Shown here one piece after another: positions 26,070-60,822 of a stretch of 64,000 nt of DNA (within the stretch, counting starts at the first letter, position 1; the number at the start of each line of letters is the position of its first letter). Under the pieces are notes generated by a model. It made no database searches and was not told where the DNA came from. It worked only from the letters and a program-made list of their open reading frames with translations. The position numbers and the translations under genes are program-made. The stretch lies in assembly GCA_903877885.1 (NCBI GenBank), contig CAIRFN010000006.1, forward strand, positions 3,342 to 67,341, written 5' to 3'. This stretch comes from an uncultured Candidatus Berkelbacteria bacterium. Its GTDB lineage: Bacteria > Patescibacteriota > UBA1384 > UBA12157.

Positions 26070-26144
26070 TGGAGGCGTCGCCGGGACTTGCACCCGGGTA
26101 CGCGGTTTTGCAGACCGCTCCCTGAACTGCTCGGGCACGACGCC
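26070..26144 (-). tRNA. tRNA-Cys(GCA), CCA encoded
   Basis: Reverse complement GGCGTCG-TG-CCCG...GCGGT-CTGCAAA-ACCGC...CCGGG-TGCAAGT-CCCGG-CGACGCC-T-CCA folds as a canonical cloverleaf. Confidence 0.8.
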
Positions 26145-26811: not shown

Positions 26812-26886
26812 TGGAGCGGGTAACGGGAGTCGAACCCGTATCTCATCCTTGGCAAGGACGTATAAGAACCGTTATACGATACCCGC
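26812..26886 (-). tRNA. Putative tRNA-Gly(GCC), CCA encoded, slightly atypical D-arm
   Basis: Reverse complement GCGGGTA...CGTCC-TTGCCAA-GGATG...ACGGG-TTCGACT-CCCGT-TACCCGC-T-CCA: acceptor, anticodon (GCC) and T arms fold well, but the D-arm spacer is irregular. Needs tRNAscan-SE. Confidence 0.5.
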
Positions 26887-34035: not shown

Positions 34036-34122
34036 GCCCAGGTGGCGGAATTGGTATACGCTTAGCCTTGAGGTGGCTATGGGAGCAATCCCGTGCAGGT
34101 TCAAGTCCTGTCCTGGGCACCA
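34036..34122 (+). tRNA. tRNA-Leu(GAG), type II, CCA encoded
   Basis: GCCCAGG...TAGCC-TTGAGGT-GGCTA, long variable arm, GCAGG-TTCAAGT-CCTGT, CCTGGGC-A-CCA. Confidence 0.8.
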
Positions 34123-35633
34123 AATGAGACAGGTTCGCTGTTTAAGACCAATATTGAGGTATAAACAGGGCTAATTTCGGTGTTTAATAAGCGTTTTTCA
34201 TTATATCGCAATCCGGTGGGGTATATTGAACACAAGAGCGCCCGCTTCTGTTCCAGGTTTGATTTTTGATATGTTTCCACTAAATTCGCTAATTTCGTTT
34301 CGATAAATTTTATAATGAGCTCCAAGCTGTATTTGCGTAGCAAGTCGTCATTTTTGGTAATCTGAATGTCTCTCACCTTTTCTTCGACGATTTTGTTTTG
34401 TTCTTTAAACATTTCATCGGAATAAACACCCGATAAATTCTTTTCGATCAACGCCTGCCGAAATTCATACAGTTTTTTCAGTTCATCGTCCGCCTGAGCT
34501 CTTCTTTTAACCAATTCCGAGGCCCGACTGTAGTATTTTGTCCGAAGATAGGAAATAAATAATTCGATAGTTTTCTTTTTCGGAGCCACTTTGCCCAACT
34601 CTTCAATCGTTGCTTCCTCCAACAATCCTGCGGCCACATTTGAGCCGCTACAACGATGGGAACAGAAATAATGGGCGTAATGCTTCCTTTTCCCTTTACA
34701 CCAACCGCCGGTCATTGAGGCGCCACACTTGCCGCATTTTATAATTCGTCTTAATGGAAAATCGGGATTGTCTGGATTTCTTCTGGCCAGCGGCGCCGAT
34801 ATATTGACGTTTCTGCCATCCAGGACGGCCTGCACCCGATAAAATTGTTCCTCGGTTACCATCGGCGGGTGCTGACCTTGAGTTTCCAGTCCATGCTTTT
34901 TGGAGACGATTTTACCGATATAAAATTTATTGCGGAAAATTCTACTCAACTCTTGTGGGTATATTTTTCCGCCTTTACCGCTTGTAATGCCTTTTTCGTT
35001 GAGAATTACGGCCAGCTGCCGCAAAGTTTTGGTACCGGTAGCCGTTTGAGCCCAAGTTTCTTGCCAAATATCCCAAGTTTTGGAGTCTTTAATGGCATAA
35101 CCGCTTTGAGATATATAGCCAGGAGGTACGCAGCCGTTACTTGGGAGACCTGCCCAAAACCTGGCACGCATACCGTTTTTAGTTCGTTCGCTTCGGACAT
35201 CATTATCCATTTGAGCAAAACCGGCCAGCATCGTTTCGACGAATTTTTCCGTCGGGCTGTTGCCGGTCGGCTCGGTCACGGAAAGCAGTTTAATTTCCGA
35301 TTCCATCAACTTTTTCCTGATAGCCAAATAGTCCGCCGTTTGGCGCGAAATTCGGTCTAATCGGTAAACAATCACCGCGTCGACCTCTTTCCGATGTTTT
35401 CGACAATACTCTAACATCTCAATTAATACTGGTCGACCGGTAATCGTTTTGGCGGATCGTCCCTCTTCACGAAAAACCTGTAAAATTTCGATTTCCCGGC
35501 GTTCCGCTTCCTTGCGGCAAATGTCCTCCTGTGTTTCCAGCGAATAATTGCCGACTTGTTCTTCGGTTGAGACCCGAAGATAAACCACCGCCTTGGATGG
35601 TTGTTGGGTTTTACCGGCTGTAAAATGCTCCAT
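34101..35633 (-). CDS. Large serine recombinase (resolvase catalytic domain + recombinase domain + zinc ribbon); candidate integrase of an integrated element
   Basis: N-terminus AVVYLRVSTEEQ (catalytic Ser), ...DAVIVYRLDRISR; C-terminal Cys cluster CGKCGASMTGGWCKG...HYFCSHRC. The 3' end overlaps the tRNA-Leu(GAG) 3' end by ~22 nt. Confidence 0.85.
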   Translation of the reverse strand: MEHFTAGKTQQPSKAVVYLRVSTEEQVGNYSLETQEDICRKEAERREIEILQVFREEGRSAKTITGRPVLIEMLEYCRKHRKEVDAVIVYRLDRISRQTADYLAIRKKLMESEIKLLSVTEPTGNSPTEKFVETMLAGFAQMDNDVRSERTKNGMRARFWAGLPSNGCVPPGYISQSGYAIKDSKTWDIWQETWAQTATGTKTLRQLAVILNEKGITSGKGGKIYPQELSRIFRNKFYIGKIVSKKHGLETQGQHPPMVTEEQFYRVQAVLDGRNVNISAPLARRNPDNPDFPLRRIIKCGKCGASMTGGWCKGKRKHYAHYFCSHRCSGSNVAAGLLEEATIEELGKVAPKKKTIELFISYLRTKYYSRASELVKRRAQADDELKKLYEFRQALIEKNLSGVYSDEMFKEQNKIVEEKVRDIQITKNDDLLRKYSLELIIKFIETKLANLVETYQKSNLEQKRALLCSIYPTGLRYNEKRLLNTEISPVYTSILVLNSEPVSFGAQDRT

Positions 35634-39293: not shown

Positions 39294-40070
39294 ATGACTA
39301 AACTACCCTCAATTACCAAAACACAAGAAAATATTATCCAACTCATCTATCGCTTCAGATTTCTTAATCGAATCCAAATACAAAAATTACTCAAAATTAA
39401 ATCGGTCAGTAAACTCAATTACTATCTAAAAGACCTGACCGAAAAAGAATATCTTAAGCGATCACATGAAGATACGTTCCCAAACAAACTTCGGCCGGCC
39501 GTTTACCATATCGGCCCAAACGGGATCCGGTTTTTGAGATCGCAAGATAATTGCGAAGCCGAAGCGATCAAGAATCTTTATCGGGAAGATAATCGATCAA
39601 GCAGTTTTAGGGATTGTTGTCTTCTGCTGGCCGATATTTACCTCGGATTTGAAAACCGCCAAGACAAAGATGTCCAATCGATCATGCAGATGAGAAGCGA
39701 TTATCCGGCCCATCCGCTCAAAGATATACTTAGCGATCTCAAGCCTTCCGCCTATGTTGCCCAAAAGAAATCTGGCAAGACTAAACGGTCCTTTTTGGAA
39801 ATTTTGTACGATCTGCCGGATCAATATTTAAGGCAAAGAATAAAGCAATATCTTAAATTTTATCGAGGAAGCGTTTGGGAATCAGAAACGAAAACGGATT
39901 TCCCGACGATTATGATCGTCTGCCCCAATGACAGAGTTCTGGCCTACGTCAGACATTACGTCAAAACAAAGCTCGCACAATTCGACGGATCGGATTTGAT
40001 CATCGATTTGACCACGTCCGATAAGGTTAAAGAGTTTGGCCTTACCAGTGATATTTGGAAGAAAATTTAA
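39294..40070 (+). CDS. Hypothetical protein with N-terminal winged-helix region (possibly replication-relaxation-like)
   Basis: 258 aa; ...ENIIQLIYRFRFLNRIQIQKLLKIKSVSKLNYYLKDLTEKEYLKR HTH-like N-terminus. A weak call. Confidence 0.3.
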   Translation: MTKLPSITKTQENIIQLIYRFRFLNRIQIQKLLKIKSVSKLNYYLKDLTEKEYLKRSHEDTFPNKLRPAVYHIGPNGIRFLRSQDNCEAEAIKNLYREDNRSSSFRDCCLLLADIYLGFENRQDKDVQSIMQMRSDYPAHPLKDILSDLKPSAYVAQKKSGKTKRSFLEILYDLPDQYLRQRIKQYLKFYRGSVWESETKTDFPTIMIVCPNDRVLAYVRHYVKTKLAQFDGSDLIIDLTTSDKVKEFGLTSDIWKKI

Positions 40071-47800: not shown

Positions 47801-47986
47801 AAAATGCCGGAGAGTTTTTCAACGGAACCGATTGAGATGACACGATTAAGAGCTATTGACGACGGTCGTGGTAGGCCGGAGTCAATGATATATGATGATT
47901 TGGCGACTGGTACCGATTTAAACAAACCTCATATGTATGGCGGCTCCGCTTGGCACAGATCGCTAGAAGGTAGGACTAATGGGTGA
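44894..47986 (+). CDS. Large hypothetical protein (1030 aa) heading the tandem paralog array
   Basis: Long ORF with a good RBS (AAGGAGAATAAAAGGATG); its stop overlaps the start of the first paralog. No domain recognisable by eye. Confidence 0.5.
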   Translation: MGEFQNHSVEFDNLGGLTSEDRQAILMRGDLRKRSQELKVNALNLNPPESTPEHKAYYERILSLVNREADGEEKMDPAQAEATLDEKEKGMRVKIATMGEIAPNFGGYLYANLAKYEQLAGQDFSEDLSKSKEYMDRATHIPKLVPSNLLPDAITLGIQKRFLDTQELPSKEKIAQAAQMDPELIKSYALVLHENEREDFLKLIPEDQRRQIGIELDTSVSSVLHQSLIEKNTPEEEQRRQVRMRLFRELRSSLSETDPSDKKTVQLMGEALGTLGEDARQLILELIRDETDSREEGVDRQTDHLPRIMKVMIDNFDDWRGNDIILQTAASPELNHHMSIYLFGKLVDKGYLPKDVADWWNTRKTTASNEGREPDDEKFRLDILKGTVDELGVIPNKEILEFISKDENWQGDDGQTVPVSERFERIASSQAEFSGVKSNSELVDLLKNNENKAMIYFLLHGGDDRFNLINNYSFDKFKEMLGLISDLEINERPIQSFKETLLNSGMNEGQANDVITRLRAGHFPLPNSQQAYQEVSFEISENAALNNANGEIGQVLGKDQLGVVLTFPMYREYLEADGSEQAQEMFARMQQATTFTDRQAIIAEINGLYPDFQERIKNDLQDSWIKFGDKMVIETTLDQVLTSDQIQIHGEELLPKLDAKRIDLKRINKELLIALKSENRNVSDLNSEISRKKKARTGLEQGLARQTDVGKRGELQRKIDEIDSDIANLETRRAAVGEMKVDDRFTGLSKEEKEAEVDRLSQEIIALTEKSPSAIFTFITMQVLGEQRLRENDITLVKEMESHLQGPFQTINDVLTYERPKTESKKRTRVGLQYLDKVDRLATMVRFADSKICCFSSSNYEMRVQHNTPNKIWVASINKDPMSFVLSMEMPQVQTDQPGKKVNENIGFIFGSFAQDNEGKLGVMMNGIYYAPGIEDARQVEQIMGGVEKIFEGLPINTEVIATQYGGSVKMPESFSTEPIEMTRLRAIDDGRGRPESMIYDDLATGTDLNKPHMYGGSAWHRSLEGRTNG

Positions 47987-48878
47987 AAATTTAGAGCCTT
48001 TTGAAATTCAACGCGAGGCATTAGCTGAAAGATTAAAACTCAAAGAACAATGGGAGTCACAGATTAGTATTCTTAATGAAACAGGAATTCTACAATTGCT
48101 CCCAGAAAGTCAGGAGCTAGGGATCGTTGGTATTGATGGTGAAGAATATCCAATTCCAGATTATAAAGAAATCATAGATCGTCTTACACCAGAAAAAGCA
48201 CAAATTCTGGAGCAGAAAATTGAACAAGGGTTTAGTAAAATGCTATTAGTGCCTTTTGGTATGTCCATGGAGACCTTAGCTCAAAGGTACAGAGAAGTAG
48301 TTCTTAAAAAAAGTAATGAAGAAACTCTTTTGGATACTGATGGTTTAAGGATTGAGTTAGACAAAAATAACCCCTTCCCAAACCTAATATCCCTGAACAC
48401 TGACATCGATAAAAGACTGTCCTACTATCCAAGTAATTTTGAGGAGCAAGAGGGCTTCACTAAGTCTGAGATACTCAGTAGAGGTGCCGGGTTTAAGATC
48501 GAGTTTATCGAGGATCGACCAGACTTATCTGATAACCGGCAAGCTCAAGGTGGAAGATTCAGTCCACCATCCAGGAGTATGCCAGCCAGGTATCTAGAGA
48601 TAATCCAGAACGATGAAAACATGTCGAATGAACAAGGATGGACGATGGAAACGTGGTTAACATATGCTATTACGAATTTAAAAGAAAGAAACCAACAAAT
48701 TGATAGTAATCGTTGGGGAAAGTTTTCTTGGCTTTTGGGCGCCTATTTCCCAGCACAAGCTCCTAGTGTGCCAATAGTGATGTATGCAGGTTGGTCTAAA
48801 GGCAAAGCAGAATTATTTAGTGGTGAATTTGATGATAGGTCAACCAACGCTAGTCTACGTACTTCAGTGGAGATATAA
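47979..48878 (+). CDS. Tandem paralog 1 of the 7-member family (no variable repeat)
   Basis: Conserved N-terminus LEPFEIQREALAERLKLKEQWESQISILNETGILQLLPESQELGIVGIDGEEYPIP; C-terminus ...ASLRTSVEI. Confidence 0.6.
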   Translation: MGENLEPFEIQREALAERLKLKEQWESQISILNETGILQLLPESQELGIVGIDGEEYPIPDYKEIIDRLTPEKAQILEQKIEQGFSKMLLVPFGMSMETLAQRYREVVLKKSNEETLLDTDGLRIELDKNNPFPNLISLNTDIDKRLSYYPSNFEEQEGFTKSEILSRGAGFKIEFIEDRPDLSDNRQAQGGRFSPPSRSMPARYLEIIQNDENMSNEQGWTMETWLTYAITNLKERNQQIDSNRWGKFSWLLGAYFPAQAPSVPIVMYAGWSKGKAELFSGEFDDRSTNASLRTSVEI

Positions 48879-48880
48879 CT

Positions 48881-49798
48881 ATGAATAATGAATCATTACA
48901 ACCATTTGAAATTCAACGTGAAGCGTTAGCTGAGCGATTGAATCTAAGAGAACAGTGGGAATCACAAGTTAAAATCTTGAATGAGACTGGTATTTTGGAG
49001 ATCCTTCCAGAGGCCCAAGAGTTGGGAATCATTGGTATTGACGGTCGAGAGCATCCAGTACCAGATTTTCAGGAAATTATGTCTCGAATTTCGCCGGAGC
49101 AGATGGAAGTCTTAGAGAAAAAGAATGAGCAAGGATTCAATAAAATGGTCCTAGTTCCTTTTGCTGTACCGCTAGACATATTGATTGATCGATACAAAAA
49201 GCTTCTTATTGAAAAAGATGCGGAAGGATCACTCTCATCAACTGATGGTTCAAAACTTAATCTCGATCGCGACCAACCAATCTATGTTTGGGACAAATAT
49301 ACCGGTGCTGATGCAAGCGGTGAGTTAGTTTATTTCCCGAATACATTTGATCAACAAAATCACGGTGGTAAAACAAAAAATACCCTAATACAAGAAGGTA
49401 AATCTTGGCAATTTGAATTACTTGAAGAAAATATTAATATCCCTGCTAAAGGTCAGGGAGAGATACTTGACGGCCGCAAACAACTAGAAGCCGGACAATC
49501 ACCAAATCAATATTTAAAAGAATTACAAATCGATCCTCAATATCAAAATGAGGTCGGCTTGACACCAGAAGCATGGTTGGTTTTAGCTATAACCCAATTA
49601 AAAGAAAACCATGGCCAAATTGACGATTATCAAGGTCAAGGCAAAATAAATTTTCTTACGGGTGCCTATTTCCCCGGTTCTGACAGTGTCCCGCGCGCGC
49701 GCTGGAGCCGTGACGGTCGTCGGGCGTTCTTGGACAGGAGCGTTCCCTCTGGCTCGCTTTCGAGCATTGGGTGTCGCTCCTCGGTGGAAATTCAGTAA
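48881..49798 (+). CDS. Tandem paralog 2; DGR target gene carrying variable repeat VR1 at its 3' end
   Basis: Same conserved N-terminus. The last ~38 codons (…VPRARWSRDGRRAFLDRSVPSGSLSSIGCRSSVEIQ) are the VR copy of the template repeat. Confidence 0.7.
   Translation: MNNESLQPFEIQREALAERLNLREQWESQVKILNETGILEILPEAQELGIIGIDGREHPVPDFQEIMSRISPEQMEVLEKKNEQGFNKMVLVPFAVPLDILIDRYKKLLIEKDAEGSLSSTDGSKLNLDRDQPIYVWDKYTGADASGELVYFPNTFDQQNHGGKTKNTLIQEGKSWQFELLEENINIPAKGQGEILDGRKQLEAGQSPNQYLKELQIDPQYQNEVGLTPEAWLVLAITQLKENHGQIDDYQGQGKINFLTGAYFPGSDSVPRARWSRDGRRAFLDRSVPSGSLSSIGCRSSVEIQ
49676..49789 (+). repeat. DGR variable repeat VR1
   Basis: ~114 bp matching the template repeat at 54708..54821, except at the template's adenine positions (all 17 differences fall on them). 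Confidence 0.8.
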
Positions 49799-49893
49799 TT
49801 TGATATTTGGCTTTTAAACTTTCTTTTTTCTTTATCTTTGATTCGGTATCCCGCCTTCGGCGGGCCACTGCAAAAATTTTAAAGGAGATAGAT

Positions 49894-50781
49894 ATGGAGA
49901 GTAATATGAGTGAAAATCTTCAACCATTTGAAATACAGCGCGAAGCACTTGCTGAACGGCTAAAACTCAAAGACCAGTGGGCATCACAGGTTAAGATGCT
50001 GAATGAAGCGGGTGTTTTGGAATTGCTTCCAGAGAGTCAGGAGCTAGGAATTATCGGAATTGATGGACAAGAATATGCAATACCTAGTTATGAACAAATT
50101 TTAGGTCGTATTACTCAAGGAAAAGCTGAGATTTTAGAAAATCAAACAGAAAACGGTTATAAGCAATTAATTTTAACTCCTTTCGCAATGCCTTTGAGGC
50201 AACTGTGTAAATTAGTTGAAGGATCATTTAAGAAAGTCTTATCAGAAAACCAAGTTGTTGATGCTTATGGAAGTGATGAAAGAATCAATTCTGATAACTT
50301 TATTGAAGATAATGGAAATATTCTCGATTCCGATATTAACGGAGAAATGGTTTACTACCCAAACTCAGACGATAGCAAAGACGGTTTGACAAAAATAGAT
50401 TGCATTAAAGAAAATGGTGGTTGGGAAATTGATTTTATTGCCAAAGAACCTCAGAAATACATACAAGATATCAACAAGCAAAAAAAGGCCATGGTGCAAG
50501 GTGGATTTAGAGGATTAACTCTTGAAAGCTGGTTGACTCAGTCAATGAATTTTTTCCAGAACGAGAAAAAGTTTTCAGATTATCTCGAACCATGTCTTTT
50601 GGCGGGATCGTCTCTGCGAGAGAAGAGGACTATCCCGGCAGCATGGTTTGCTGATAATCGATCTAATTACAAAGGTAAATATTTAGTAATAAAAACTTTA
50701 GAAGAAAATCGTAATCAAAATAAAGCATTTGGCGGTTTTTCGCAAACTGACGGAAATGCGCGTTTCAGCGTGAATTTATAA
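49894..50781 (+). CDS. Tandem paralog 3
   Basis: Start chosen at ATG 49894 after RBS AAAGGAG; the ORF track starts earlier at 49807. N-terminus MESNMSENLQPFEIQREALAERLKLKDQW... Confidence 0.6.
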   Translation: MESNMSENLQPFEIQREALAERLKLKDQWASQVKMLNEAGVLELLPESQELGIIGIDGQEYAIPSYEQILGRITQGKAEILENQTENGYKQLILTPFAMPLRQLCKLVEGSFKKVLSENQVVDAYGSDERINSDNFIEDNGNILDSDINGEMVYYPNSDDSKDGLTKIDCIKENGGWEIDFIAKEPQKYIQDINKQKKAMVQGGFRGLTLESWLTQSMNFFQNEKKFSDYLEPCLLAGSSLREKRTIPAAWFADNRSNYKGKYLVIKTLEENRNQNKAFGGFSQTDGNARFSVNL

Positions 50782-50790
50782 AGGGAAAAT

Positions 50791-51675
50791 ATGAATGAAT
50801 CCTTACAACCATTTGAAGTCCAAAGAGAAGCTTTAACTGAAAGGCTAAAACTCAAAGAGCAGTGGGAATCGCAAATAAAAATACTTAACGAAGTTGGAAT
50901 TCTTGAAATTCTACCTGAAAGTCAGGAGCTGGGAATCATTGGAATTGATCAAAAAGAATATCCAATCCCCAATTATGAAGATATTCTTAATAAAATTACT
51001 CAAGAACAAGCAGACTTAGTAACCCAAAAAACTGAACAGGGGTTTAATAAGTTAATATTGGTTCCCTTCGCTAAATCCCTTCAAGAAACCATAGAACTCT
51101 ATGCTAGATTATTAGTCCAAAAAAAACACGAAAAGACCCTTGTAGGGGCTGAAAACGAAGAATTTGACCTCGATATCAATAATCCTATCGTTGATATGAC
51201 TAAAAATGATTCTTTGTTTTATATTCCATCAAATGGAAAAAGATTCACGAAATCGGAATTTCTTGTAAGCGAAATGCGTTACCCGGGTTGGCAAGTCGCA
51301 TTAATCGAAGATTCTCCCGTCCCGTTCGAGAAAGATTCAGATAAAAAGGAATATGGCTACAAACAACCAAATGGCGATTTAGTAAGAGATTGGAGTCATC
51401 AGCTAAAGCTAATGAAAGAGAACGAATCTTATATCGGCGAAGAGGAAATATCTCCAGAGGCATGGCTTGCATATGCCATCACTAACTTAAAGGAAAAAAA
51501 CCAGCAGATTGATTTTCAAAATGAATCAATTGACAGGTGTTGGCTTGGTGCTTTTAGTAAAAAAGGAGAAACTGTTTACTCTTTATTTAAAAACAATCAA
51601 ATTAACTTTCATATCTATTCTCCCTTTGAGAGGGAGAAATCAAAAGCTATTTTTAGGTCGGTCGTACAGATTTAA
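50791..51675 (+). CDS. Tandem paralog 4
   Basis: MNESLQPFEVQREALTERLKLKEQWESQIKILNEVGILEILPESQELGIIGID... Confidence 0.6.
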   Translation: MNESLQPFEVQREALTERLKLKEQWESQIKILNEVGILEILPESQELGIIGIDQKEYPIPNYEDILNKITQEQADLVTQKTEQGFNKLILVPFAKSLQETIELYARLLVQKKHEKTLVGAENEEFDLDINNPIVDMTKNDSLFYIPSNGKRFTKSEFLVSEMRYPGWQVALIEDSPVPFEKDSDKKEYGYKQPNGDLVRDWSHQLKLMKENESYIGEEEISPEAWLAYAITNLKEKNQQIDFQNESIDRCWLGAFSKKGETVYSLFKNNQINFHIYSPFEREKSKAIFRSVVQI

Positions 51676-51704
51676 ACTATTTAAATTTAGATTGAAAAGG
51701 TAAT

Positions 51705-52592
51705 ATGAATGAATCATTACAACCATTTGAAATCCAAAGAGAATCCTTAGCTGAAAGACTAAAACTAAAAGACCAATGGGAATCTCAAATTCGTGTACTA
51801 AATGAGGCTGGTATTTTAGAAATTCTTCCTGAAAGCCAAGAATTGGGAGTTATTGGCGTTGATGGTCAGCAATATCCGATACCAGAATACTCTGATGTGC
51901 TTAACCAACTAACACCAGAAAATTTGGAATTATTAGAGGCAAAACAGGAAGAAGATTATAACAAACTAATTATTACGCCGTTTGCGATGCCTTTAAAACA
52001 ACTAATTGATAGATATTCTTCTCTTCTAAAGAGAAAAGACAAAACAGGAGAACTTAAAGATTCACAAGGAAATAGTATAAATATATCTGACGGTGATGAA
52101 CCTATTAAGTTACCTGTTAAACTTATCGAAGATGGTTACGATGACACACTCTTGTATTTTGGAAAATTGGGCGAAGAACAAGAGACTGGTAAAACAAAAA
52201 AGAAATCGATAGAGCAAGGAAAAATTTGGCACTTTTGTCTGGTTCAGGATACAAACTCTCTTGAAAACAAGAGGATTGAGACGAAAATCGATTCTTATCT
52301 TCAAGAAGGCGGTTTATCTGGATATACGCTTGAAGATTGGTTGATGCATGCAATTACGAATTTGCAAGAAAGTGGAAAACAAATAGATTGCACTGATTCC
52401 AAAGAAATAATCCCAAATTGGTTAATGGGATCGTACCTTCCAAAAGATGATTGTTATTTCAGAGCAGCCTATGATATTCACGATCCCTCTTCTACTGGCG
52501 CTGTCATCGGCGGCGCAAAAGGAGAAATTTTGAAAAGTCGAAAGAATTTTATTAATTTTAGAAACTTGATTGAGCTAGGAAGCAATTTATGA
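51705..52592 (+). CDS. Tandem paralog 5
   Basis: MNESLQPFEIQRESLAERLKLKDQWESQIRVLNEAGILEILPESQELGVIGVDG... Confidence 0.6.
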   Translation: MNESLQPFEIQRESLAERLKLKDQWESQIRVLNEAGILEILPESQELGVIGVDGQQYPIPEYSDVLNQLTPENLELLEAKQEEDYNKLIITPFAMPLKQLIDRYSSLLKRKDKTGELKDSQGNSINISDGDEPIKLPVKLIEDGYDDTLLYFGKLGEEQETGKTKKKSIEQGKIWHFCLVQDTNSLENKRIETKIDSYLQEGGLSGYTLEDWLMHAITNLQESGKQIDCTDSKEIIPNWLMGSYLPKDDCYFRAAYDIHDPSSTGAVIGGAKGEILKSRKNFINFRNLIELGSNL

Positions 52593-53506
52593 ATGAATCC
52601 TTGCAACCTTTTGAAACCCAGTGTGAGGCACTTGCCGAACGATTAAAACTCAAGGAACAGTGGGAATCACAGGTTCAGTTTCTCAATGAAGTAGGTATTT
52701 TAGAATTATTACCTGAATCGCAAGAATTGGGCATTGTTGGAATTGATGGTCGGGAATACCCAGTTCCTGAATATTCGGAGATAATGCAAAAAATCACCCC
52801 GGAAAAGGCGGAGATTTTGGAAAGAAAATCCGAACAAGGATTTAATAAAATGCTCTTAGTGCCTTTCGCGATACCTTTAGAAAGGTTGATAGATCGTTAT
52901 GAACGAGAATTAGTTAAACAATCTGAAAATGGCGGTGTAATCAATTCTAATGGTGAAAAGATAGAAATTAATCCGAAAAATCCAATAACTTTTATGGATA
53001 ATGAATTTAAAAGCTCAGATCTAACTAAAAAGTTAGCCTACTACCCAACTCATCCCGATTATGGTGGCGAAACGAAATCAGAAATAATTTCAAAAGATAG
53101 CCCCTGGAAATTTCATTTTGTTGAAGATTTAGACCATATTCCTCAGCAAGAGGAAGGTCAAACTATTGGCGGCAGAAAACAGCTTGAAACAGGTATGAGT
53201 CCAAGACAATATTTACTTCAGGTACAACGAAATGCTATGTATTCGAACGAACAAGGTATGACACCAGAAGACTGGCTTTGTAATGCAATTTTAAATTTAA
53301 GAAATAACGGAAAGCAAATTGATAGCGCTGGAAGAAACGGTCAAACTTGTTATTTAATCGGTTCTGGTTATCAATATGGCCCGTCAGGTGAAGAAATAGC
53401 TAGTGCTGGATGGGGTCGCATAAAAAGTGATTCTGCTTTTTTGGGTGCCGACTTCAATAGTGAATCACAACAAAATTTTGGCGTTAGAACTGTAGTAGAA
53501 ATCTAA
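52589..53506 (+). CDS. Tandem paralog 6
   Basis: MNESLQPFETQCEALAERLKLKEQWESQVQFLNEVGILELLPESQELGIVGIDG...; C-terminus ...NFGVRTVVEI. Confidence 0.6.
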   Translation: MNESLQPFETQCEALAERLKLKEQWESQVQFLNEVGILELLPESQELGIVGIDGREYPVPEYSEIMQKITPEKAEILERKSEQGFNKMLLVPFAIPLERLIDRYERELVKQSENGGVINSNGEKIEINPKNPITFMDNEFKSSDLTKKLAYYPTHPDYGGETKSEIISKDSPWKFHFVEDLDHIPQQEEGQTIGGRKQLETGMSPRQYLLQVQRNAMYSNEQGMTPEDWLCNAILNLRNNGKQIDSAGRNGQTCYLIGSGYQYGPSGEEIASAGWGRIKSDSAFLGADFNSESQQNFGVRTVVEI

Positions 53507-53515
53507 AGGAATATT

Positions 53516-54421
53516 ATGACAGAAAACTTACAACCATTCGAAATTCAACGCGAAGCATTTGCCGAGCGGTTAAATCTGAAAGAACAATGGGAATCACAGG
53601 TCAAAATACTTAATGAAGTAGGTATTCTTGAGATACTGCCCGAAAGTCAGGAATTAGGGATCATTGGTATTGACGGTCAAGAGTATCCAGTACCAGATTT
53701 CCAGGAAATTATGTCTCGAATTACCCCAGAACAGATGGAAGTTTTAGAAAAGAAAAATGAGCAAGGTTTTAACAAAATGCTTATTACTCCCTTTGGCATG
53801 CCTCTGGACATCCTAATTAGTAGGTATAAAGAACTCTTACTTAAAAAAGATTCTGAAAGCACGTTACTGGCTACCGATGGCTCGAAACTTGATCTTGATA
53901 GAAATGAACCAACATGGGTTTGGGAAGGATACAACGGTGCTGACGCAAACGGAGGGCTAGTTTATTTTCCAGAAAGCTTCACCCAAAATCATGAGGGGCA
54001 AACTAAACAAGAGATATTGGCTAACTCAGGTGCTTTCAAAATCGAGTTTATTGAAGATACGCCAGACATGCCTCGAAACGAACAAACTCAAGGCGGCCGC
54101 ATTAAACCTACTCCAGGTAAAAAAGCGTCTCAGTATCTTGAAATCATGCAAAACGATGAAAATATGACCAACGAGCATGGTCTCACCCCTGAAACATGGC
54201 TGACTTATGCTATTACTAACTTAAAAGAAAGAAACCAACAAATAGATGACTGGCAAGGTCAAGGTAAGGGTTCCTGGCTTACCGGTGCTTATTTCCCGGC
54301 TTCTGGCTTTGTCCCGTGCGCGGACTGGGACCGTGACGCTCGTCTGGCGTACTTGGACGGGAGCGGTCCCTCTGTCTCGTTTTCGGGCTTTGGGTGTCGC
54401 TCCTCGGTGGAAATAAAATAG
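53516..54421 (+). CDS. Tandem paralog 7; DGR target gene carrying variable repeat VR2 at its 3' end
   Basis: Conserved N-terminus; C-terminal …VPCADWDRDARLAYLDGSGPSVSFSGFGCRSSVEIK is the VR copy. Confidence 0.7.
   Translation: MTENLQPFEIQREAFAERLNLKEQWESQVKILNEVGILEILPESQELGIIGIDGQEYPVPDFQEIMSRITPEQMEVLEKKNEQGFNKMLITPFGMPLDILISRYKELLLKKDSESTLLATDGSKLDLDRNEPTWVWEGYNGADANGGLVYFPESFTQNHEGQTKQEILANSGAFKIEFIEDTPDMPRNEQTQGGRIKPTPGKKASQYLEIMQNDENMTNEHGLTPETWLTYAITNLKERNQQIDDWQGQGKGSWLTGAYFPASGFVPCADWDRDARLAYLDGSGPSVSFSGFGCRSSVEIK
54311..54412 (+). repeat. DGR variable repeat VR2
   Basis: Matches the template repeat except at its adenine positions; shares the identical 3' end GGGTGTCGCTCCTCGGTGGAA. 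Confidence 0.8.
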
Positions 54422-54842: not shown

Positions 54843-55884
54843 GGCTTAATATCAAAAACGTGCACCTAGTTTTGCAAAATATAGTTAATTATTTTGTCTT
54901 TTAGTTCTTTGGTAAAGCCTCTGTGAATGTTTACTTTTTGTTTTAGCCAACTAAAACTGCCCTCTAAAGAATTGGTGGTTTTGGGGATATTAAGTTCAGG
55001 ATATTTTAGATACGTAAAAAGATATGGCAAATTAGTTTTAAGGCTTCTAAAAGCCGCTCGCGTTCTCTTGTGAGTATAATGCCATCGGTTTGTAATTTGG
55101 TCGGTTGTTCTCTCCTTTAGAAACTCTTGCCACTTTTGGTGCCATAGGAGTAGTTTTTGGGTAAATTCTTTCTCGGTGGCATAGGTCAAAGTATCGCTAA
55201 TAGCTTTGAGTTCTAAGCTTGCTTCTAACTTTGGGTTTAAGGTTAAATAACGCTGGATAATTTGTTTTTGATGAAAATGACACATCTGGACTGGGACATC
55301 TAAAAATAGATTTCTCACTCCGGGTCTGCCATCCAAAACAATAGCTTTAAACTTAAAGCCTTGATTTTCTAGGGTAATTCTTCCCATTAGGTACTCGTTG
55401 ATTGTCTCGAATATAACAGGTTTGAAATAGAGATTACGTTTGAGCTCGACCGCTCTAAAAACCAGAAAACCGTATGCTCTGCCAAAGAAAGTAGCATCGA
55501 CAACAAAAACTAGACCATCAGGTGTGGTCTTCTTTTTAATGGTTTTCGCTTTCTCGATTTTAGTTCTAACCCAGTTGATGCTTTTGCCGTACTCGCAAGA
55601 GAGATTCTTGAGAGTCTGGCGCTTTCCGACATATTTTCCCAGGATAATTTGTTCTAATTTTTGAGGTCTGGATTTCGTTTGAAAATAACTTTGGCAATCT
55701 TTGCAAAAATATCTTTGCTTTTTTGCCGAGCGAGTACTTTTACCCTTTTTTACGCAACGATTTGAACTGCATTTAGGACAGTTTTTTTAACCATGTTTAC
55801 ATCCTCCTGTAAATTAACTTTAAATTACTGGTTCAAATATATCACATTCAGGTTAAGTTAGGTGCACGTTTTTGATATTAAGCC
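54843..55884 (-). mobile_element. IS1-family-like insertion sequence (1042 bp) with 26-bp terminal inverted repeats and 8-bp target-site duplication TAAGAAAG
   Basis: IRL GGCTTAATATCAAAAACGTGCACCTA (54843..54868) is the exact reverse complement of IRR (55859..55884). The direct repeat TAAGAAAG sits at 54835..54842 and 55885..55892. Confidence 0.8.
54866..55794 (-). CDS. IS1-like transposase (InsA-type zinc finger fused to DDE domain); reading frame requires a -1 shift in an A7 run at codon 4
   Basis: After RBS AGGAGG and ATG at 55794, the 0-frame stops after 14 codons. The -1 frame gives ...CPKCSSNRCVKKGKSTRSAKKQRYFCKDCQSYF... (the IS1 InsA C-x2-C…QRY-x-C-x2-C finger). It continues to ...TNSLEGSFSWLKQK... 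and a stop at 54866. Confidence 0.6.
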
Positions 55885-56202
55885 TAAGAAAGAGATCGAA
55901 TCCATCCGCCAAGCATGCGGCCGATTTCTCTTAAATCAGATTGCGCTTGGAAAATTTTGGTTTCATTCCCTAAATGCAGTTCCAAGCAGGCTCTTAGTTT
56001 CAGAGTAATTATTTCTAATCGGCCGGAAGCTTTAAGGAGATAAGAAGATTTTAGGGTTTTCGGCGCATTTTTAGCCATAATTAGCTCTTCAAGCAGATCC
56101 AAAATCGAATTTTCAAGACTCATGCCCAAAGAATAGCGCCATCTTTTTTCGAGCTTGGCGTTAAATTCAAGAATGAATTTATATAAATCGTAGGATTGAT
56201 TA

Positions 56203-56222
<20 letters not shown>
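55884..56222 (-). CDS. avd: DGR accessory variability determinant (Avd-like four-helix-bundle protein)
   Basis: 112 aa; ...RWRYSLGMSL... and C-terminal ...EIGRMLGGWIRSLS resemble Bordetella bAvd (…EVGRILGSWIARV…). Adjacent to the RT gene. Confidence 0.7.
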
Positions 56223-57214
<992 letters not shown>

Positions 57215-59274: not shown

Positions 59275-59460
59275 TTTTCCTCCTCAAATTTTATTTAGTT
59301 TAATTCTACTACTACTACTTTACAACAAAATAGACTAAAAAATATCAGTTTGTATTAAAGCCATTGAAAAATAAGGCAAAATCAGGTAAAATAAAGAAGG
59401 AATGGGCGGTTGGCTCAGTTGGTAGAGCGCTTCGTTTATTTACCCCGTTAAATAGATTCC

Positions 59461-59532
59461 GGCCGCTTAACTCAGCGGTAGAGTACTTCGTTTACATCGA
59501 AGGAGTCGCAGGTTCGAATCCTGCAGCGGCCA
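59461..59532 (+). tRNA. tRNA-Val(TAC), no encoded CCA
   Basis: GGCCGCT-TA-ACTC-AGCGGTA-GAGT-A-CTTCG-TTTACAT-CGAAG-GAGTC-GCAGG-TTCGAAT-CCTGC-AGCGGCC-A folds as a canonical cloverleaf. Confidence 0.8.
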
Positions 59533-59731
59533 AATTTAACGGGGCAAGTCGAGAGGGTCAGAGGCTCGCTTTGCTCCGACTTCCGTCGGCGAATCCTCTA
59601 TTGCCCACCACCTTGTTATTAGGTTACCTTTATGGTAAGATAAATATATCTTAAATATCAGCCTCCTAATACAATAAATTTTCGATAGATTTGCATTTGA
59701 TCTTTGTTTGAACAAGTGAGATAATATTTTT

Positions 59732-60424
59732 ATGAATAGTCTCATCAGTTCAAAAGAAAGAGTCATATCTTTACGAAAAGAAGGTAAAAGTTATGGAGAA
59801 ATAAATAAGATTTTAGGATTACCTAAAAGCACTTTATCAACCTGGCTAAAAGATTTGCCGATTTCTAAAAAGGTAAGAGAGAAAAATATTAATAATGCTA
59901 AATCTGTTTGGGCTAAAAATATTATAGAGTTTAATAAATTACGCTCTGAAAAATACCAAAAAGATACACAATTACTATTAGATAATTTTTCTTTACAAGT
60001 TCCTTTGGTTTCAAAAGATATTCTATTTTTTATCGGTTTGTCGTTATTTTGGGCTGAAGGTGGAAAAAGAGAAAAATGGAGTGTAATATTCGTCAATTCC
60101 GATCCAATAATGGTCAAAGCGATGATGAGATTTTTCAGAGAAGTTTGCTTTGTTCCGGAAGAAAAATTCAGACTAAGAATGCACATCTACCCAAATATCG
60201 ATGAAAATGAAGCTAAAGAATTTTGGTCAAAGATAACCAAATTACCATTAACGCAATTTGGAAAGTCACAAACTCAAATCAGTAAAAGTAGCCAGCATAA
60301 AAGACCAATAAATAGGTTGCCATATGGAACCTTAAATATAAGAATTGGAGATGCCAGCCTAAATAAGAAAATAAAAGGATGGCTTTTAGGATTAGGTAAA
60401 CAATTTAACAATATGCCTGGGTAG
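59732..60424 (+). CDS. HTH + LAGLIDADG-like (I-SceI-type) homing endonuclease-like protein
   Basis: N-terminal HTH (…SYGEINKILGLPKSTLSTWLKDL…); ...IGLSLFWAEGGKREKW resembles the second LAGLIDADG block of I-SceI (LAYWFMDDGGKWDY). The stop overlaps the 5' end of tRNA-Phe. Confidence 0.5.
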   Translation: MNSLISSKERVISLRKEGKSYGEINKILGLPKSTLSTWLKDLPISKKVREKNINNAKSVWAKNIIEFNKLRSEKYQKDTQLLLDNFSLQVPLVSKDILFFIGLSLFWAEGGKREKWSVIFVNSDPIMVKAMMRFFREVCFVPEEKFRLRMHIYPNIDENEAKEFWSKITKLPLTQFGKSQTQISKSSQHKRPINRLPYGTLNIRIGDASLNKKIKGWLLGLGKQFNNMPG

Positions 60425-60697
60425 CTCAGTGGTAGAGCACATGACTGAATTTTCGGTCCACTCGACAGTAATGTCGATGTGAGAATCGGGTGAATTCGGG
60501 GAAACCTCGCAAATCGCGGGTCAATCCCGAGCCGAGCCTCGGTGGGTTTAAGTATCGAGGAAGGTGTAGAGACTAATAGGTGAGTCCCAACAATAATCCT
60601 ATAAATAGCGCCCGACTTCCCTCTGGGAAGATGAGATAGTCCACCACGTAATTGGAAAATCATGGTGTCGGCAGTCCGATCCTGCCCCCAGGCACCA
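60415..60697 (+). tRNA. tRNA-Phe(GAA) interrupted by a 208-nt group I intron in the anticodon loop (exons 60415..60446 and 60655..60697; CCA encoded)
   Basis: Exon 1 is GCCTGGG-TA-GCTC-AGTGGTA-GAGC-A-CATGA-CT. Exon 2 is GAAAA-TCATG-GTGTC-GGCAG-TCCGATC-CTGCC-CCCAGGC-A-CCA. The intron ends in G after a 5' exon U, and contains group I R-like (GGTGTAGAGACTAATAG) and S-like (GATGAGATAGTCC) elements. Confidence 0.75.
60447..60654 (+). ncRNA. Group I self-splicing intron (no ORF) within tRNA-Phe
   Basis: Conserved R/S core elements and terminal G; too short to encode an endonuclease. Confidence 0.65.
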
Positions 60698-60717: not shown

Positions 60718-60760
60718 ATAAATAGTTTCGGCAGTTCGCCTTTAGGTATAGTTCCTGCCC
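60718..60760 (+). repeat. Duplicated tRNA 3'-end fragment (TCGGCAGTTCGCCTTTAGGTATAGTTCCTGCCCCCAGGCACCA)
   Basis: Ends with the same CCTGCCCCCAGGCACCA as tRNA-Phe, 21 nt downstream of it; an att-site-like direct repeat. Confidence 0.6.
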
Positions 60761-60822
60761 CCAGGCACCAAATTATATCACTGCTAAAAATATTAGTAGT
60801 GAATGTTTAGTATTGGAAAAAC

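Follow-up and report, generated by a model that had tools for sequence, protein, structure and literature searches.

A complete tRNA-Val gene nested in the remains of another in a Berkelbacteria genome: a probable case of tRNA gene replacement by insertion

We analysed a stretch of 64,000 nt (the window) from an uncultured Candidatus Berkelbacteria bacterium, in which a sequence-only reading had suggested an outer tRNA gene whose anticodon loop is broken by an insertion with a whole tRNA-Val in it, or else a split or permuted tRNA. Every sequence element named in that reading was found present at the locus, and comparison with syntenic homologues showed that the suggested interruption is correct at the DNA level. 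The locus has the following features:

59364-59392, + strand: promoter-like site TTGAAA-17-TAAAAT (10/12 matches), 11 nt 5' of the 5' relic
59404-59438, + strand: 5' relic, as we read it, of the native tRNA-Val(UAC), positions 1-35, GGGCGGTTGGCTCAGTTGGTAGAGCGCTTCGTTTA
59439-59460, + strand: left spacer of the insert, with the left repeat arm and then the 7-nt unpaired leader AGATTCC
59443-59453 (perfect core) and 59440-59453 (with one mismatch): left inverted-repeat arm, CCCCGTTAAAT
59461-59532, + strand: inner complete tRNA-Val(UAC) (ARAGORN; Rfam RF00005; identity to L039/L040)
59533-59544, + strand: right spacer of the insert, which carries the right repeat arm
59534-59544 (perfect core) and 59534-59547 (14 nt with one mismatch): right inverted-repeat arm, ATTTAACGGGG
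59545-59566, + strand: 3' relic, first part (CAAGT, CGAGA, GGGTC, AGAGG, C-T)
59567-59589, + strand: T-loop insert of 23 nt, at about position 55/56 of the relic
59590-59610, + strand: 3' relic, second part (CGAAT, CCTCT, ATTGCCC, A73, CCA)

The insert of 106 nt (59439-59544) lies in the anticodon loop, between positions 35 and 36, and contains no ORF, hence no endonuclease gene; the segment bounded by the 14-nt repeat arms (59440-59547) measures 108 nt. A stretch of 1.2-1.6 kb that includes the nested locus showed 99.8-100% identity across four independent public assemblies, and contigs with this locus reach 445 kb in length. Because of this near-identity the locus is not an assembly artefact, and a chimeric assembly was rejected.

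The inner gene was called as tRNA-Val(tac) by ARAGORN and scored 70.2 bits against RF00005 (threshold 29), the top tRNA score in the window, in agreement with the complete tRNA-Val(TAC) that had been reported at 59461-59532. It is a canonical cloverleaf above the Rfam gathering threshold with a 7-nt anticodon loop, and the discriminator A73 is followed by AAT, with no encoded CCA. Its acceptor stem, GGCCGCT, is unlike that of the outer gene. The inner gene is 90% identical to the ordinary CCA-bearing tRNA-Val of the related genomes L039 and L040, and 81% identical to that of L001. By these identities it would be foreign to the lineage of the window and of a type native to a sister lineage; it looks intact and, within the 64 kb of this genome in view, is presumed to be the working tRNA-Val copy. 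A phage origin of the inner tRNA was rejected, with no exact 24-mer match in IMG/VR and only generic matches (~80%) to cyanophage tRNA-Val.

The 5' tRNA half previously noticed at 59404-59438 is present, with GGGCGGT as acceptor strand, an intact D arm, CTTCG as anticodon-stem strand and TTTA as loop bases. Its first 19 nt are identical to the outer tRNA-Val of L012, and its local match score was 29/35 to both the L012 outer and the L009 inner tRNA-Val, compared with 18/35 to the inner gene of the window. Taken over the outer pieces, the matches to the L001/L012 type were 17/19, 14/18 and 29/35, compared with 8/19, 8/18 and 18/35 to the inner gene. In the 3' relic, CAAGT is the loop remnant (36-38) plus 2 extra nt, CGAGA the anticodon-stem strand, GGGTC the variable loop and AGAGG the T-stem strand; in the second part CGAAT is the remaining T-loop and CCTCT the T-stem strand, and a CCA is encoded. 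The first part includes CGAGAGGGTCAGAGG, which is identical to the L001 tRNA-Val. The outer acceptor strands ATTGCCC and GGGCGGT pair as had been proposed, two G-U pairs among them, and the 3' end, earlier drawn as far as 59612, was located at 59600-59610.

The breakpoints of the outer gene are contiguous (35/36). In the syntenic genomes L001 and L008, which show the tRNA row Leu(GAG)-Val-Phe-S1-Leu(TAA), the tRNA-Val gene is uninterrupted (GGGCGGTTGGCTCAGCGGTAGAGCATCTCGTTTACATCGAGAGGGTCAGAGGTTCGAATCCTCTACCGCCCACCA), and the outer pieces of the window align collinearly with it; the syntenic relatives have one Val gene each. Because they are collinear with this orthologous gene, the flanks are true tRNA-Val remnants, and to judge from the alignment the outer pieces are the lineage's native, CCA-encoding tRNA-Val(UAC), broken at 35/36.

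The outer flanks showed no Infernal match at E <= 10, and ARAGORN run on 59381-59640 with intron options or a lowered threshold called the inner tRNA alone. As long as the T-loop insert was present ARAGORN called nothing from the outer pieces; it gave an outer cloverleaf solely after both inserts had been cut by hand, and then with anticodon aca or tat, not tac. The anticodon-stem strands CTTCG and CGAGA form a C-A mismatch (pair 27-43) and one G-U pair. The outer tRNA had resisted folding by eye because of the 23-nt insert in its T-loop. No contiguous or spliceable cloverleaf with the correct anticodon was obtained, and since the anticodon is destroyed, the anticodon stem mismatched and the T-loop interrupted, the outer gene cannot yield a normal tRNA; we read it as a dead relic. 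The idea of a functional split or permuted tRNA was thus not sustained, the pieces standing in normal order at one locus, with their anticodon destroyed, a T-loop insert and no ribozyme. Both ARAGORN and Infernal gave a single ordinary tRNA-Val and no significant score for the flanks, which points to a remnant, though one of unusual and recurrent origin. Rfam at E <= 10 likewise gave the inner tRNA alone, and tmRNA or another known RNA family across the locus was rejected.

The inner gene is bracketed by an inverted repeat, whose 11-bp left arm had been placed correctly and whose right arm lies one base to the left of its earlier placement. Of 20000 random placements of a 72-nt gene in the window, 8 gave flanks of 30 nt with a perfect 11-mer complement to each other (P = 4e-4), and for the other tRNAs of the window the flank complement never exceeded 7. 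In the minimum-free-energy fold the repeat arms pair and enclose the inner cloverleaf. For nested inner tRNAs the leader-trailer duplexes ranged from -12 to -19 kcal/mol, with p <= 0.027 in 4/5 nested inner tRNAs compared with 2/19 ordinary tRNAs, and CCA was encoded in 0/5 nested inner genes compared with 38/53 other tRNAs. The bracketing inverted repeat and the absent CCA are systematic features of nested inner genes. The T-loop insert forms a hairpin of its own (CCGAC, 59576-59580; TTCC; GTCGG, 59585-59589). No further copies of the repeat arm or of the T-loop insert were found in the window, each being single-copy, and a multi-copy repeat family was rejected.

The site TTGAAA-17-TAAAAT is the joint best-scoring promoter-like site in the region. 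The number of such sites is not above shuffle expectation, so that its function as a promoter can only be inferred; it is likely the native tRNA-Val promoter, now driving the inner gene. This site and the leader-trailer stem are consistent with inner-gene expression. Transcripts of the inner gene would start at the old promoter and carry the 5' relic as part of a 57-nt leader, and the outer pieces would give no tRNA any more. The leader-trailer stem formed by the inverted repeat would shield the inner cloverleaf from competition by the relic halves. RNase P would then cleave the 5' end of the inner tRNA and RNase Z its 3' end, as would fit a CCA-less gene, and the CCA-adding enzyme would complete it.

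The pattern of old tRNA pieces around a CCA-less whole tRNA recurs in relatives for Val, Leu and Phe. In L012 the inner gene sits in the D-loop of an outer tRNA-Val gene that also has a T-loop insert, and despite the two inserts all four stems of the outer gene are perfect and it encodes a CCA. The inner gene of the L009 tRNA-Val locus sits at 9/10, accompanied by a D-loop insert, and nested genes were also found for Phe in L006 and for Leu(GAG) in L039. We found 5' relics in L016, L001 and L033, with truncated halves and point damage noted in L016 and L001, and stacked 5' halves lie 5' of tRNA-Phe in L016. L002 has a Leu(TAA) 5' relic plus a degenerate second Phe copy, and L027 has a Leu(GAG) 3' relic bearing a T-loop insert. 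The Leu(GAG) gene of L016 is of the same CCA-less type as the L039 inner gene and has no relic left; therefore replacement can run to completion.

Nearly all of the ~20 insert sites read by eye in 14 relics are loop-coding (9/10, 19/20, 35/36, 55-57). Global alignment to a reference tRNA, which in nested loci mixes the inner with the outer copy, was restricted to relic-only cases. L009 and L012 have a homologous D-loop insert in common, with one covarying hairpin pair, and their outer tRNA-Val genes differ by four compensatory pair changes; going by these changes, the insert-bearing tRNA could perhaps have been functional for a long time. In several genomes, Phe and Leu relics carry at one fixed D-loop site hairpin inserts whose ends are conserved (CAGAY...RTCA, then TAG), and none was found outside this site in the 206 kb scanned. 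A protein-database search for other nested loci, using a spurious 96-aa ORF that overlaps the locus, gave no matches.

Some of the loci carry nuclease genes. GIY-YIG ORFs lie between a 5' relic and a whole tRNA in L033 (1397-1633) and L002 (12463-12771). In the window a LAGLIDADG_3 ORF (26146-26805) lies between tRNA-Cys and tRNA-Gly, and a LAGLIDADG-fold/HTH ORF (59732-60424; 230 aa) adjoins tRNA-Phe. We consider it rather probable that the locus is the wreck of a native CCA-encoding tRNA-Val(UAC) with a functional replacement inside, and one case of a recurrent replacement by insertion in this clade. A cassette with a whole tRNA gene, or with the part of it that goes missing, would enter a conserved loop-coding segment of the resident gene, probably after cleavage by a putative homing-type nuclease. 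The cell would retain a working tRNA yet could not shed the insert, and the displaced pieces would decay and later be deleted. The scars at other tRNA genes of related genomes suggest a mode of tRNA gene turnover.

In its layout the locus resembles fungal mitochondrial mORFs, in which an endonuclease gene arrives with a foreign replacement gene end and the native end is left as a relic (Allomyces macrogynus atp6; Glomus atp6, atp9, cox2 and nad3; PMC3630166). In both, an essential gene is entered by a mobile insert that supplies, from a related lineage, a foreign and more divergent substitute for the displaced part, and the displaced part stays adjacent as an unexpressed relic; at the window locus, too, the native displaced part is kept beside a foreign, more divergent substitute. 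The L033 and L002 cassettes share the mORF layout (5' relic, GIY-YIG ORF, whole tRNA). However, mORFs lie in protein-coding organelle genes and replace the 3' end only, whereas the targets here are bacterial tRNA genes and the substitute is a whole gene, which can be nested with relics on both sides; the insert of the window has no endonuclease ORF, and an inverted repeat brackets the substitute. Nuclease-driven replacement by insertion, akin to mORFs, is the best reading, and we infer both the mechanism and its direction. Several observations weigh against a nuclease: the GIY-YIG ORFs are only 78-83 aa long and comprise the catalytic domain alone, the whole tRNA beside them keeps the presumed target intact, unlike a classical homing site, and the insert of the window has no nuclease gene; a nuclease cutting tRNA genes is itself part of the conjecture. 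Against replacement by insertion more generally, the inverted-repeat arm sequences vary from case to case, relic D- and T-loops carry hairpin inserts that are perfectly palindromic and sit at fixed positions, and the flawless outer stems of L012 are not expected from slow neutral decay. The homologous D-loop insert of L009 and L012 and the four compensatory pair changes between their outer genes weigh in the same direction. An undescribed nuclease or repair activity could lie behind the fixed insert positions (19/20, 35/36, 55-57) and the perfect hairpins.

Other explanations were weighed against this one. The inner tRNA with its repeat arms might be a small non-autonomous REPIN- or MITE-like element moved by a hairpin-acting transposase, for instance the IS200-like Y1 (HUH) transposase at 24950-25621, with the small hairpin inserts as related elements or footprints. 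A Y1_Tnp ORF does lie within the window, and the 108-nt repeat-bounded element adjoins TTTAC; IS608-type elements insert 3' of TTAC, which this neighbour recalls. The CAGAY...RTCA hairpins, confined to one fixed D-loop site in the 206 kb, would also suit such an element. We nevertheless think this origin unlikely, as the repeat arm and the T-loop insert are each single-copy in the window, the arm sequences are wholly different among the window, L012 and L009, there is no target-site duplication, and all inserts lie in a cognate tRNA gene, beyond what a transposase alone explains; IS200/IS605 elements are not known to have terminal inverted repeats. The nesting could also be illusory, with three tandem tRNA-Val genes arising by duplication or acquisition and deletions leaving only the 5' half of the first and only the 3' half of the third. 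The 5' relic strand CTTCG (L009/L011 type) is not matched to the 3' relic strand CGAGA (L001/L012 type), which would allow for two source genes, and stacked 5' halves are known upstream of the L016 tRNA-Phe. The breakpoints are, however, complementary in the window (35/36), L012 (19/20) and L009 (9/10), which disfavours tandem genes because random deletions would not give complementary breakpoints three times. In every case the outer acceptor strands pair mutually and differ from the inner acceptor stem, the syntenic relatives have a single Val gene, and the tandem model leaves the inverted repeat around the inner gene unexplained, so that we hold tandem genes to be very unlikely. More doubtful still is that the tRNA fragments are attachment-site duplications of a ~25-kb integrated conjugative-type element between tRNA-Leu(GAG) and the locus, which we regard as extremely improbable. 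The Leu(GAG)-Val spacing is 5-400 nt in relatives (36 nt in L001) compared with 25 kb in the window, and this 25 kb encodes a large serine recombinase, a coupling protein and a relaxase-like protein. Both relic halves, however, abut the tRNA-bearing insert 59439-59544 and not the 25-kb element, in which the recombinase gene is placed at the opposite end, where it overlaps tRNA-Leu(GAG) at its 3' end; serine recombinases are not known to make long duplications. Moreover, no Leu or Val fragment was found at any other element boundary, and the nested loci of L012, L009, L006 and L039 have no large element in or beside them in the sequence read.

A further explanation places the events at the RNA level: the outer tRNA would still be functional, the inserts would be intervening sequences, and the pieces would be ligated (e.g. 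by RtcB) or act as a base-paired split tRNA. RNase P and RNase Z would free the inner tRNA, a double-strand-specific RNase would remove the T-loop hairpin, and the inverted repeat would join the pieces. Nearly all of the ~20 insert sites in the 14 relics would be single-stranded in a folded tRNA, and the relic hairpins are perfect. The four perfect stems and CCA of the L012 outer gene despite its two inserts, the homologous D-loop insert of L009 and L012 with its covarying hairpin pair and the four compensatory changes, and the ARAGORN cloverleaf after removal of both inserts in silico all speak for it. In the window, however, the anticodon is not restorable: the loop would have 9 nt (TTTACAAGT), precise removal of the repeat-bounded element would leave TTTATGT with anticodon TAT and G37, and pair 27-43 is C-A. 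Neither a ribozyme nor another Rfam family was found, and no bulge-helix-bulge was seen by eye; we know of no bacterial pathway that trims and joins ends of such a kind. Truncation to halves and point damage mark many of the relics (L016, L001), and the intact inner gene in every nested case makes the outer one dispensable. We therefore judge a functional outer tRNA very unlikely in general; the narrower version, in which the inserts are new bacterial tRNA intervening sequences, the outer tRNA is re-ligated or split, the window copy has recently decayed and L012 is live, seems to us a slightly slimmer prospect. If true, the RNA-level explanation would mean protein-enzyme tRNA splicing, or gene-in-gene tRNA expression, in bacteria.

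If replacement by insertion holds, these minimal-genome bacteria would turn over tRNA genes by cassettes that break the resident gene while supplying a substitute. This would be an intron-like selfish strategy without splicing, undeletable without loss of an essential tRNA. It would explain Berkelbacteria tRNA alleles out of step with organism phylogeny, the mixture of CCA-less and CCA-bearing genes in one genome, and odd tRNA-like debris in standard annotation, and would extend the fungal-mitochondrial principle of an endonuclease plus replacement gene end to bacterial RNA genes. The loci give a concrete set for asking whether small GIY-YIG and LAGLIDADG-fold proteins of the Candidate Phyla Radiation (CPR) target tRNA genes. 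We found no published description of replacement by insertion at bacterial tRNA genes, and the literature on nested tRNA genes or tRNA fragments in CPR, Patescibacteria and Berkelbacteria yielded group I intron papers only.

Several known systems share part of this anatomy. Genomic islands and prophages in tRNA genes reportedly leave a duplicated tRNA 3' fragment. Like the inserts described here, such islands target a tRNA gene, restore its function with their own partial copy and leave a fragment, and they prefer crossover in the anticodon and T-loop regions. Islands, however, duplicate the 3' part as a direct repeat at the ends of a multi-kb integrase-encoding element, whereas here the pieces are different gene parts (1-35 and 36-76) that directly flank a 106-nt ORF-less insert with a whole tRNA gene, and no integrase gene lies inside or directly beside it. 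Free-standing homing endonucleases of phage T4-type tRNA clusters, such as SegB, are likewise GIY-YIG-type nucleases with genes in the midst of tRNA genes, and they favour the inheritance or replacement of the tRNA genes next to them (PMC2988022, PMC13096335). They act in phage genomes by homologous gene conversion and leave no nested relics, in contrast to the illegitimate nested insertions in cellular genomes seen here. In archaeal split, permuted and multi-intron tRNA genes, pieces are processed to a functional tRNA (PMC3218864). These genes likewise come in pieces, with D-, anticodon- and T-loop inserts and complementary sequences that join the halves. However, they occur in archaea and algae and depend on bulge-helix-bulge motifs and a splicing endonuclease plus ligase, whereas the present locus is bacterial, its halves are in normal order and its outer gene is damaged. 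The halves are neither separate nor permuted, the 5' piece coming first and the 3' piece following after 106 nt on the same strand. By eye no bulge-helix-bulge was seen at the junctions in sequence and fold; the junctions run into an 11-14 bp helix, with no 4-bp helix set between 3-nt bulges.

Group I introns in Patescibacteria tRNA genes include the unusual 35/36 site (PMC13011429), and the window locus shares with them the phylum, the interruption of the anticodon loop and the exact position. It differs in having no ribozyme core, in that the insert holds a tRNA gene and in that the host gene is not restored. The 5' piece ends in ...TTTA, with A and not U at position 35. A group I 5' splice site requires U at the last position of the 5' exon. 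A search of 59439-59549 with RF00028 at E <= 10 gave nothing, and 72 nt of the 106-nt insert are tRNA. A group I intron remnant at the Val locus was thus rejected for the missing RF00028 signal and the A at position 35. A genuine group I intron is present in the tRNA-Phe gene 900 nt downstream of the Val locus, where the sole RF00028 match spans 60437-60664.

The nested feature at the Val locus (59404-59610) is genuine. Its elements were as follows:

59404-59438, + strand, tRNA 5' half, GGGCGGTTGGCTCAGTTGGTAGAGCGCTTCGTTTA (sequence read)
59443-59453, + strand, left inverted-repeat arm, CCCCGTTAAAT (sequence read)
59461-59532, + strand, whole tRNA-Val(TAC), the inner gene (ARAGORN; Rfam, 70.2 bits)
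59534-59544, + strand, right inverted-repeat arm, ATTTAACGGGG (sequence read)
ending at 59610, + strand, T-loop-like CGAATCC, then ATTGCCC-A-CCA (sequence read)

All of these had been named in the sequence-only reading, which placed the right arm one base too far to the right. The locus sequence was the same in four independent assemblies (99.8-100% identity) and the elements were as described, and the feature is therefore real. In a repeat search the inverted repeat around the inner gene grew to 14 nt with one mismatch. Among 20000 random placements within the window, 8 had a perfect 11-mer between the two 30-nt flanks, and the flank-to-flank match was at most 7 for every other tRNA in the window, compared with 11 at the Val locus. 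The minimum-free-energy fold of 59404-59612 showed paired arms with the inner cloverleaf intact inside (z = -2.6). The inner gene was the sole ARAGORN and Rfam call at the locus; no other hit reached E <= 10, and turning on the intron settings of ARAGORN gave no further tRNA.

With an S1-domain gene that lies 1.7 kb downstream serving as anchor, syntenic loci were collected from genomes and metagenomes, and further relatives' loci were fetched via protein look-ups. The DNA comes from a Candidatus Berkelbacteria bacterium (CPR/Patescibacteria), whose relatives have in common the gene order tRNA-Leu(GAG), tRNA-Val(TAC), tRNA-Phe(GAA), a 140-aa ORF, S1 and tRNA-Leu(TAA). The nearest genome-collection relative found, L001 (S1 identity 85%; L008, from a metagenome, is the same sequence), has an unbroken tRNA-Val, GGGCGGTTGGCTCAGCGGTAGAGCATCTCGTTTACATCGAGAGGGTCAGAGGTTCGAATCCTCTACCGCCCACCA. 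The window pieces are collinear with it: the insert is preceded by positions 1-35 and followed by CAAGT, CGAGAGGGTCAGAGG (same as L001), C-TCG, a 23-nt insert (59567-59589), CGAATCCTCT, ATTGCCC, A and CCA. This agrees with the earlier proposal that a tRNA-Val-bearing insert breaks the anticodon loop of an outer tRNA gene. The outer T stem (AGAGG/CCTCT) is present, as is the suggested acceptor pairing GGGCGGT/ATTGCCC, with two G-U pairs; the outer tRNA could not be folded by eye because of the second insert, in the T-loop. The relic pieces matched the L001/L012 type at 17/19, 14/18 and 29/35 positions, versus 8/19, 8/18 and 18/35 for the inner gene, so they did not arise from it by partial copying.

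We conclude that the outer gene is a relic. With the T-loop insert left in, ARAGORN called no tRNA. With both inserts removed by hand it called a cloverleaf with a wrong anticodon: keeping CAAGT gave a 9-nt loop with the anticodon read as aca, and exact excision of the repeat-bounded 108 nt gave TTTATGT, with anticodon tat and G37. The outer anticodon-stem strands (CTTCG/CGAGA) have one C-A mismatch and one G-U pair, no ribozyme was found at the locus and no bulge-helix-bulge motif was seen there by eye. These results speak against a functional split tRNA, the part of the earlier interpretation that failed, while the interrupted outer gene stands. Archaeal split and permuted tRNAs also differ from the Val locus in domain of life, motif and outcome (PMC3218864). 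The CTTCG strand of the 5' relic is of the type found in the inner gene and in the relatives L009 and L011, which may reflect either co-conversion of a patch from the donor or plain mutation.

The inner gene has GGCCGCT as acceptor stem and GCAGG as T stem, both unlike the native type. It shares 90% identity with an ordinary tRNA-Val that encodes CCA, that of L039/L040, another Berkelbacteria lineage (GCA_964631885.1; S1 74%), versus 81% with the tRNA-Val of L001. The inner gene is a sister-lineage xenolog, and a search for a phage source gave none. It is followed by AAT and no encoded CCA. Upstream of the 5' relic, and separated from it by 11 nt, is a promoter-like TTGAAA-17-TAAAAT; the 22-nt spacer before the inner gene is too short for a promoter. 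We infer that transcription of the inner gene runs through the 5' relic.

Relatives showed the same pattern. The outer tRNA-Val of L012, with four perfect stems and an encoded CCA, has a first break after AGTTGG (19/20), where a structured insert carries a CCA-less whole tRNA-Val between 13-nt repeat arms, and a second, of 31 nt, in the T-loop. In L009 the outer Val is broken at 9/10 by a CCA-less Val, with a 15-bp stem around the inner gene. Both outer genes carry a homologous two-hairpin D-loop insert (L009 393-452; L012 1692-1816), the first hairpin of which has one covarying pair (GGATTGC/GCAATCC versus GGATTA/TAATCC); the whole inner tRNA of L012 sits within the second. A nested tRNA-Phe in L006 has one 5' relic before it and two 3' relics after it, and a tRNA-Leu(GAG) in L039 lies between a 5' relic truncated in the D-loop and a T-arm 3' relic. 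L016 has a CCA-less Leu(GAG) of the same type as the nested gene of L039 and no relic, so replacement can reach completion. In L016 and L001, tRNA-Phe 5' halves are stacked upstream of the working gene. Two cassettes contain GIY-YIG ORFs: in L033 the order is Leu(CAG) 5' relic, GIY-YIG ORF and whole tRNA, and in L002 it is Leu(TAA) 5' relic cut at ~35/36, two hairpins, GIY-YIG ORF and whole CCA-less tRNA. Segment 505-690 of L027, downstream of tRNA-Leu(GAG), holds a degenerate second copy, with its last 21 nt the same as the gene and a 33-nt hairpin insert in its T-loop, followed by three tandem repeats of ~30 nt (CCACGTAGGGTTCATGGCAAG-like).

CCA was absent from all five inner genes and encoded in 38/53 other tRNAs of the same loci (Fisher's exact test calculated by hand, P ~0.003). 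Leader-trailer pairing at inner genes ranged from -12 to -19 kcal/mol and was significant in 4/5, versus 2/19 ordinary tRNAs. RNase Z acts on precursors that lack CCA, and an encoded CCA inhibits it; a gene embedded in a long precursor requires endonucleolytic 3' release. On our reading, the lack of CCA and the stem either adapt the inner gene to its nested position or were traits selected among insertion events. Nearly all of the ~20 insert sites, in sequences read by eye, were loop-coding positions, and the recurrent sites (n = 3) were 19/20, 35/36 and 55-57. Four relatives carry hairpins with perfect stems, 16-35 nt long, whose conserved ends (CAGAY...RTCA) are followed by TAG:

L016, 3334-3436 and 6744-6788
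L006, 603-664
L001, 9273-9302
L033, 1334-1372

They occupy one common D-loop site (after GG, before TAGAGC or TAGACG) in tRNA-Phe and tRNA-Leu relics, with extra copies at 9/10 and 26/27 in L006, and none occurred outside tRNA relics in the 206 kb scanned. These hairpins may represent footprints, products of snap-back repair or a very small mobile element.

Nuclease genes linked to tRNAs are conspicuous in these loci. The following window ORFs lie near a tRNA-Cys/tRNA-Gly pair:

24950-25621, + strand, IS200-like Y1 (HUH) transposase ORF (Pfam Y1_Tnp)
26146-26805, - strand, double-motif LAGLIDADG endonuclease ORF (Pfam LAGLIDADG_3)

The LAGLIDADG_3 ORF fills the gap between tRNA-Cys (26070-26144) and tRNA-Gly (26812-26886); in L001 these two genes are separated by 30 nt, and their orientation relative to tRNA-Leu(CAG) is reversed. 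A 230-aa family lies directly upstream of tRNA-Phe wherever that gene carries a group I intron. The nearest published analogue of the tRNA cassettes is a fungal mitochondrial mobile endonuclease ORF, which enters atp6, atp9, cox2 or nad3 with a foreign replacement C-terminus, the native C-terminus staying as a relic (PMC3630166). From the tRNA-linked nuclease genes and this analogue we propose nuclease-driven replacement by insertion, in which the resident tRNA gene would be broken in a conserved loop-coding segment, a cassette with a whole tRNA would enter at the break, and the displaced outer pieces would decay. We see the finding as a variation on a known class, that of mobile nuclease-associated cassettes bringing a substitute for what they disrupt. 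The model has four weak points: no ORF is present in the window's insert, the GIY-YIG proteins consist of the catalytic domain alone, the whole tRNA beside the GIY-YIG ORF retains the presumed target sequence, and the origin of the inverted repeats and perfect hairpins is left unexplained.

Nuclease-driven replacement nevertheless fits better than all four rivals. A live outer tRNA with its inserts removed at the RNA level fits less well, despite the loop-only insert positions, the flawless stems of L012, and the D-loop insert common to L009 and L012 alongside four compensatory stem changes between their outer genes. Decay of a tandem array is opposed by the breakpoints of the two outer pieces, contiguous in all three Val cases, and by the outer acceptor strands, which always pair together and are unlike the inner gene's. 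The Y1 transposase gene in the window favors a hairpin-dependent transposon, again a poorer fit; as a side observation, this ORF is a candidate for action on DNA hairpins. The fourth rival, also fitting less well, is attachment-site debris from an integrated element in the ~25 kb (34101-about 59300) between tRNA-Leu(GAG) and the Val locus. This region is missing in relatives and looks like an integrated conjugative-type element, with the following features:

34101-35633, - strand, large serine recombinase ORF, 3' end overlapping the last 22 nt of tRNA-Leu(GAG)
36250-39129, type IV coupling protein
39294-40070, Replic_Relax protein
47979-54421, seven ORFs in a row, ~300 aa each
55884-56222, diversity-generating retroelement, bAvd
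56203-57214, diversity-generating retroelement, reverse transcriptase split at a (GA)n-encoded RERERE run

In open-access papers and bioRxiv preprints we found no report from bacteria of tRNA replacement cassettes, or of an entire tRNA gene nested within remnants of its own isoacceptor. The neighboring tRNA-Phe region contains:

60415-60697, + strand, tRNA-Phe(GAA) with a group I intron in the anticodon loop, intron core 60437-60664 (RF00028, 51.9 bits)
about 60722-60770, + strand, partial second tRNA-Phe 3' half (3' relic), 25 nt after the real gene

In-silico splicing of the gene gave 100% identity to its intron-less counterpart in the complete Berkelbacteria genome CP011213 (L034). The intron in the window is of a published kind: in Patescibacteria, tRNAs with a group I intron at 35/36 have been described (PMC13011429). 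The second copy has its last 18 nt the same as the gene and a 13-nt T-loop insert (CCTTTAGGTATAG). Only 3 SNPs (60698, 60706 and 60715) separated the assemblies over 1454 nt, all in the spacer just before this copy. A conserved intergenic motif, (A)TCAGYCTCCTAAC-like, was also observed 20-70 nt upstream of tRNA-Phe or of its preceding 230-aa ORF:

window, 59662-59676
L002, 8964-8978
L017, 2516-2530
L009, 1103-1117
L011, 3457-3470
L039, 2780-2794

The motif spans loci with S1 identity to the window of 60 to 100%.
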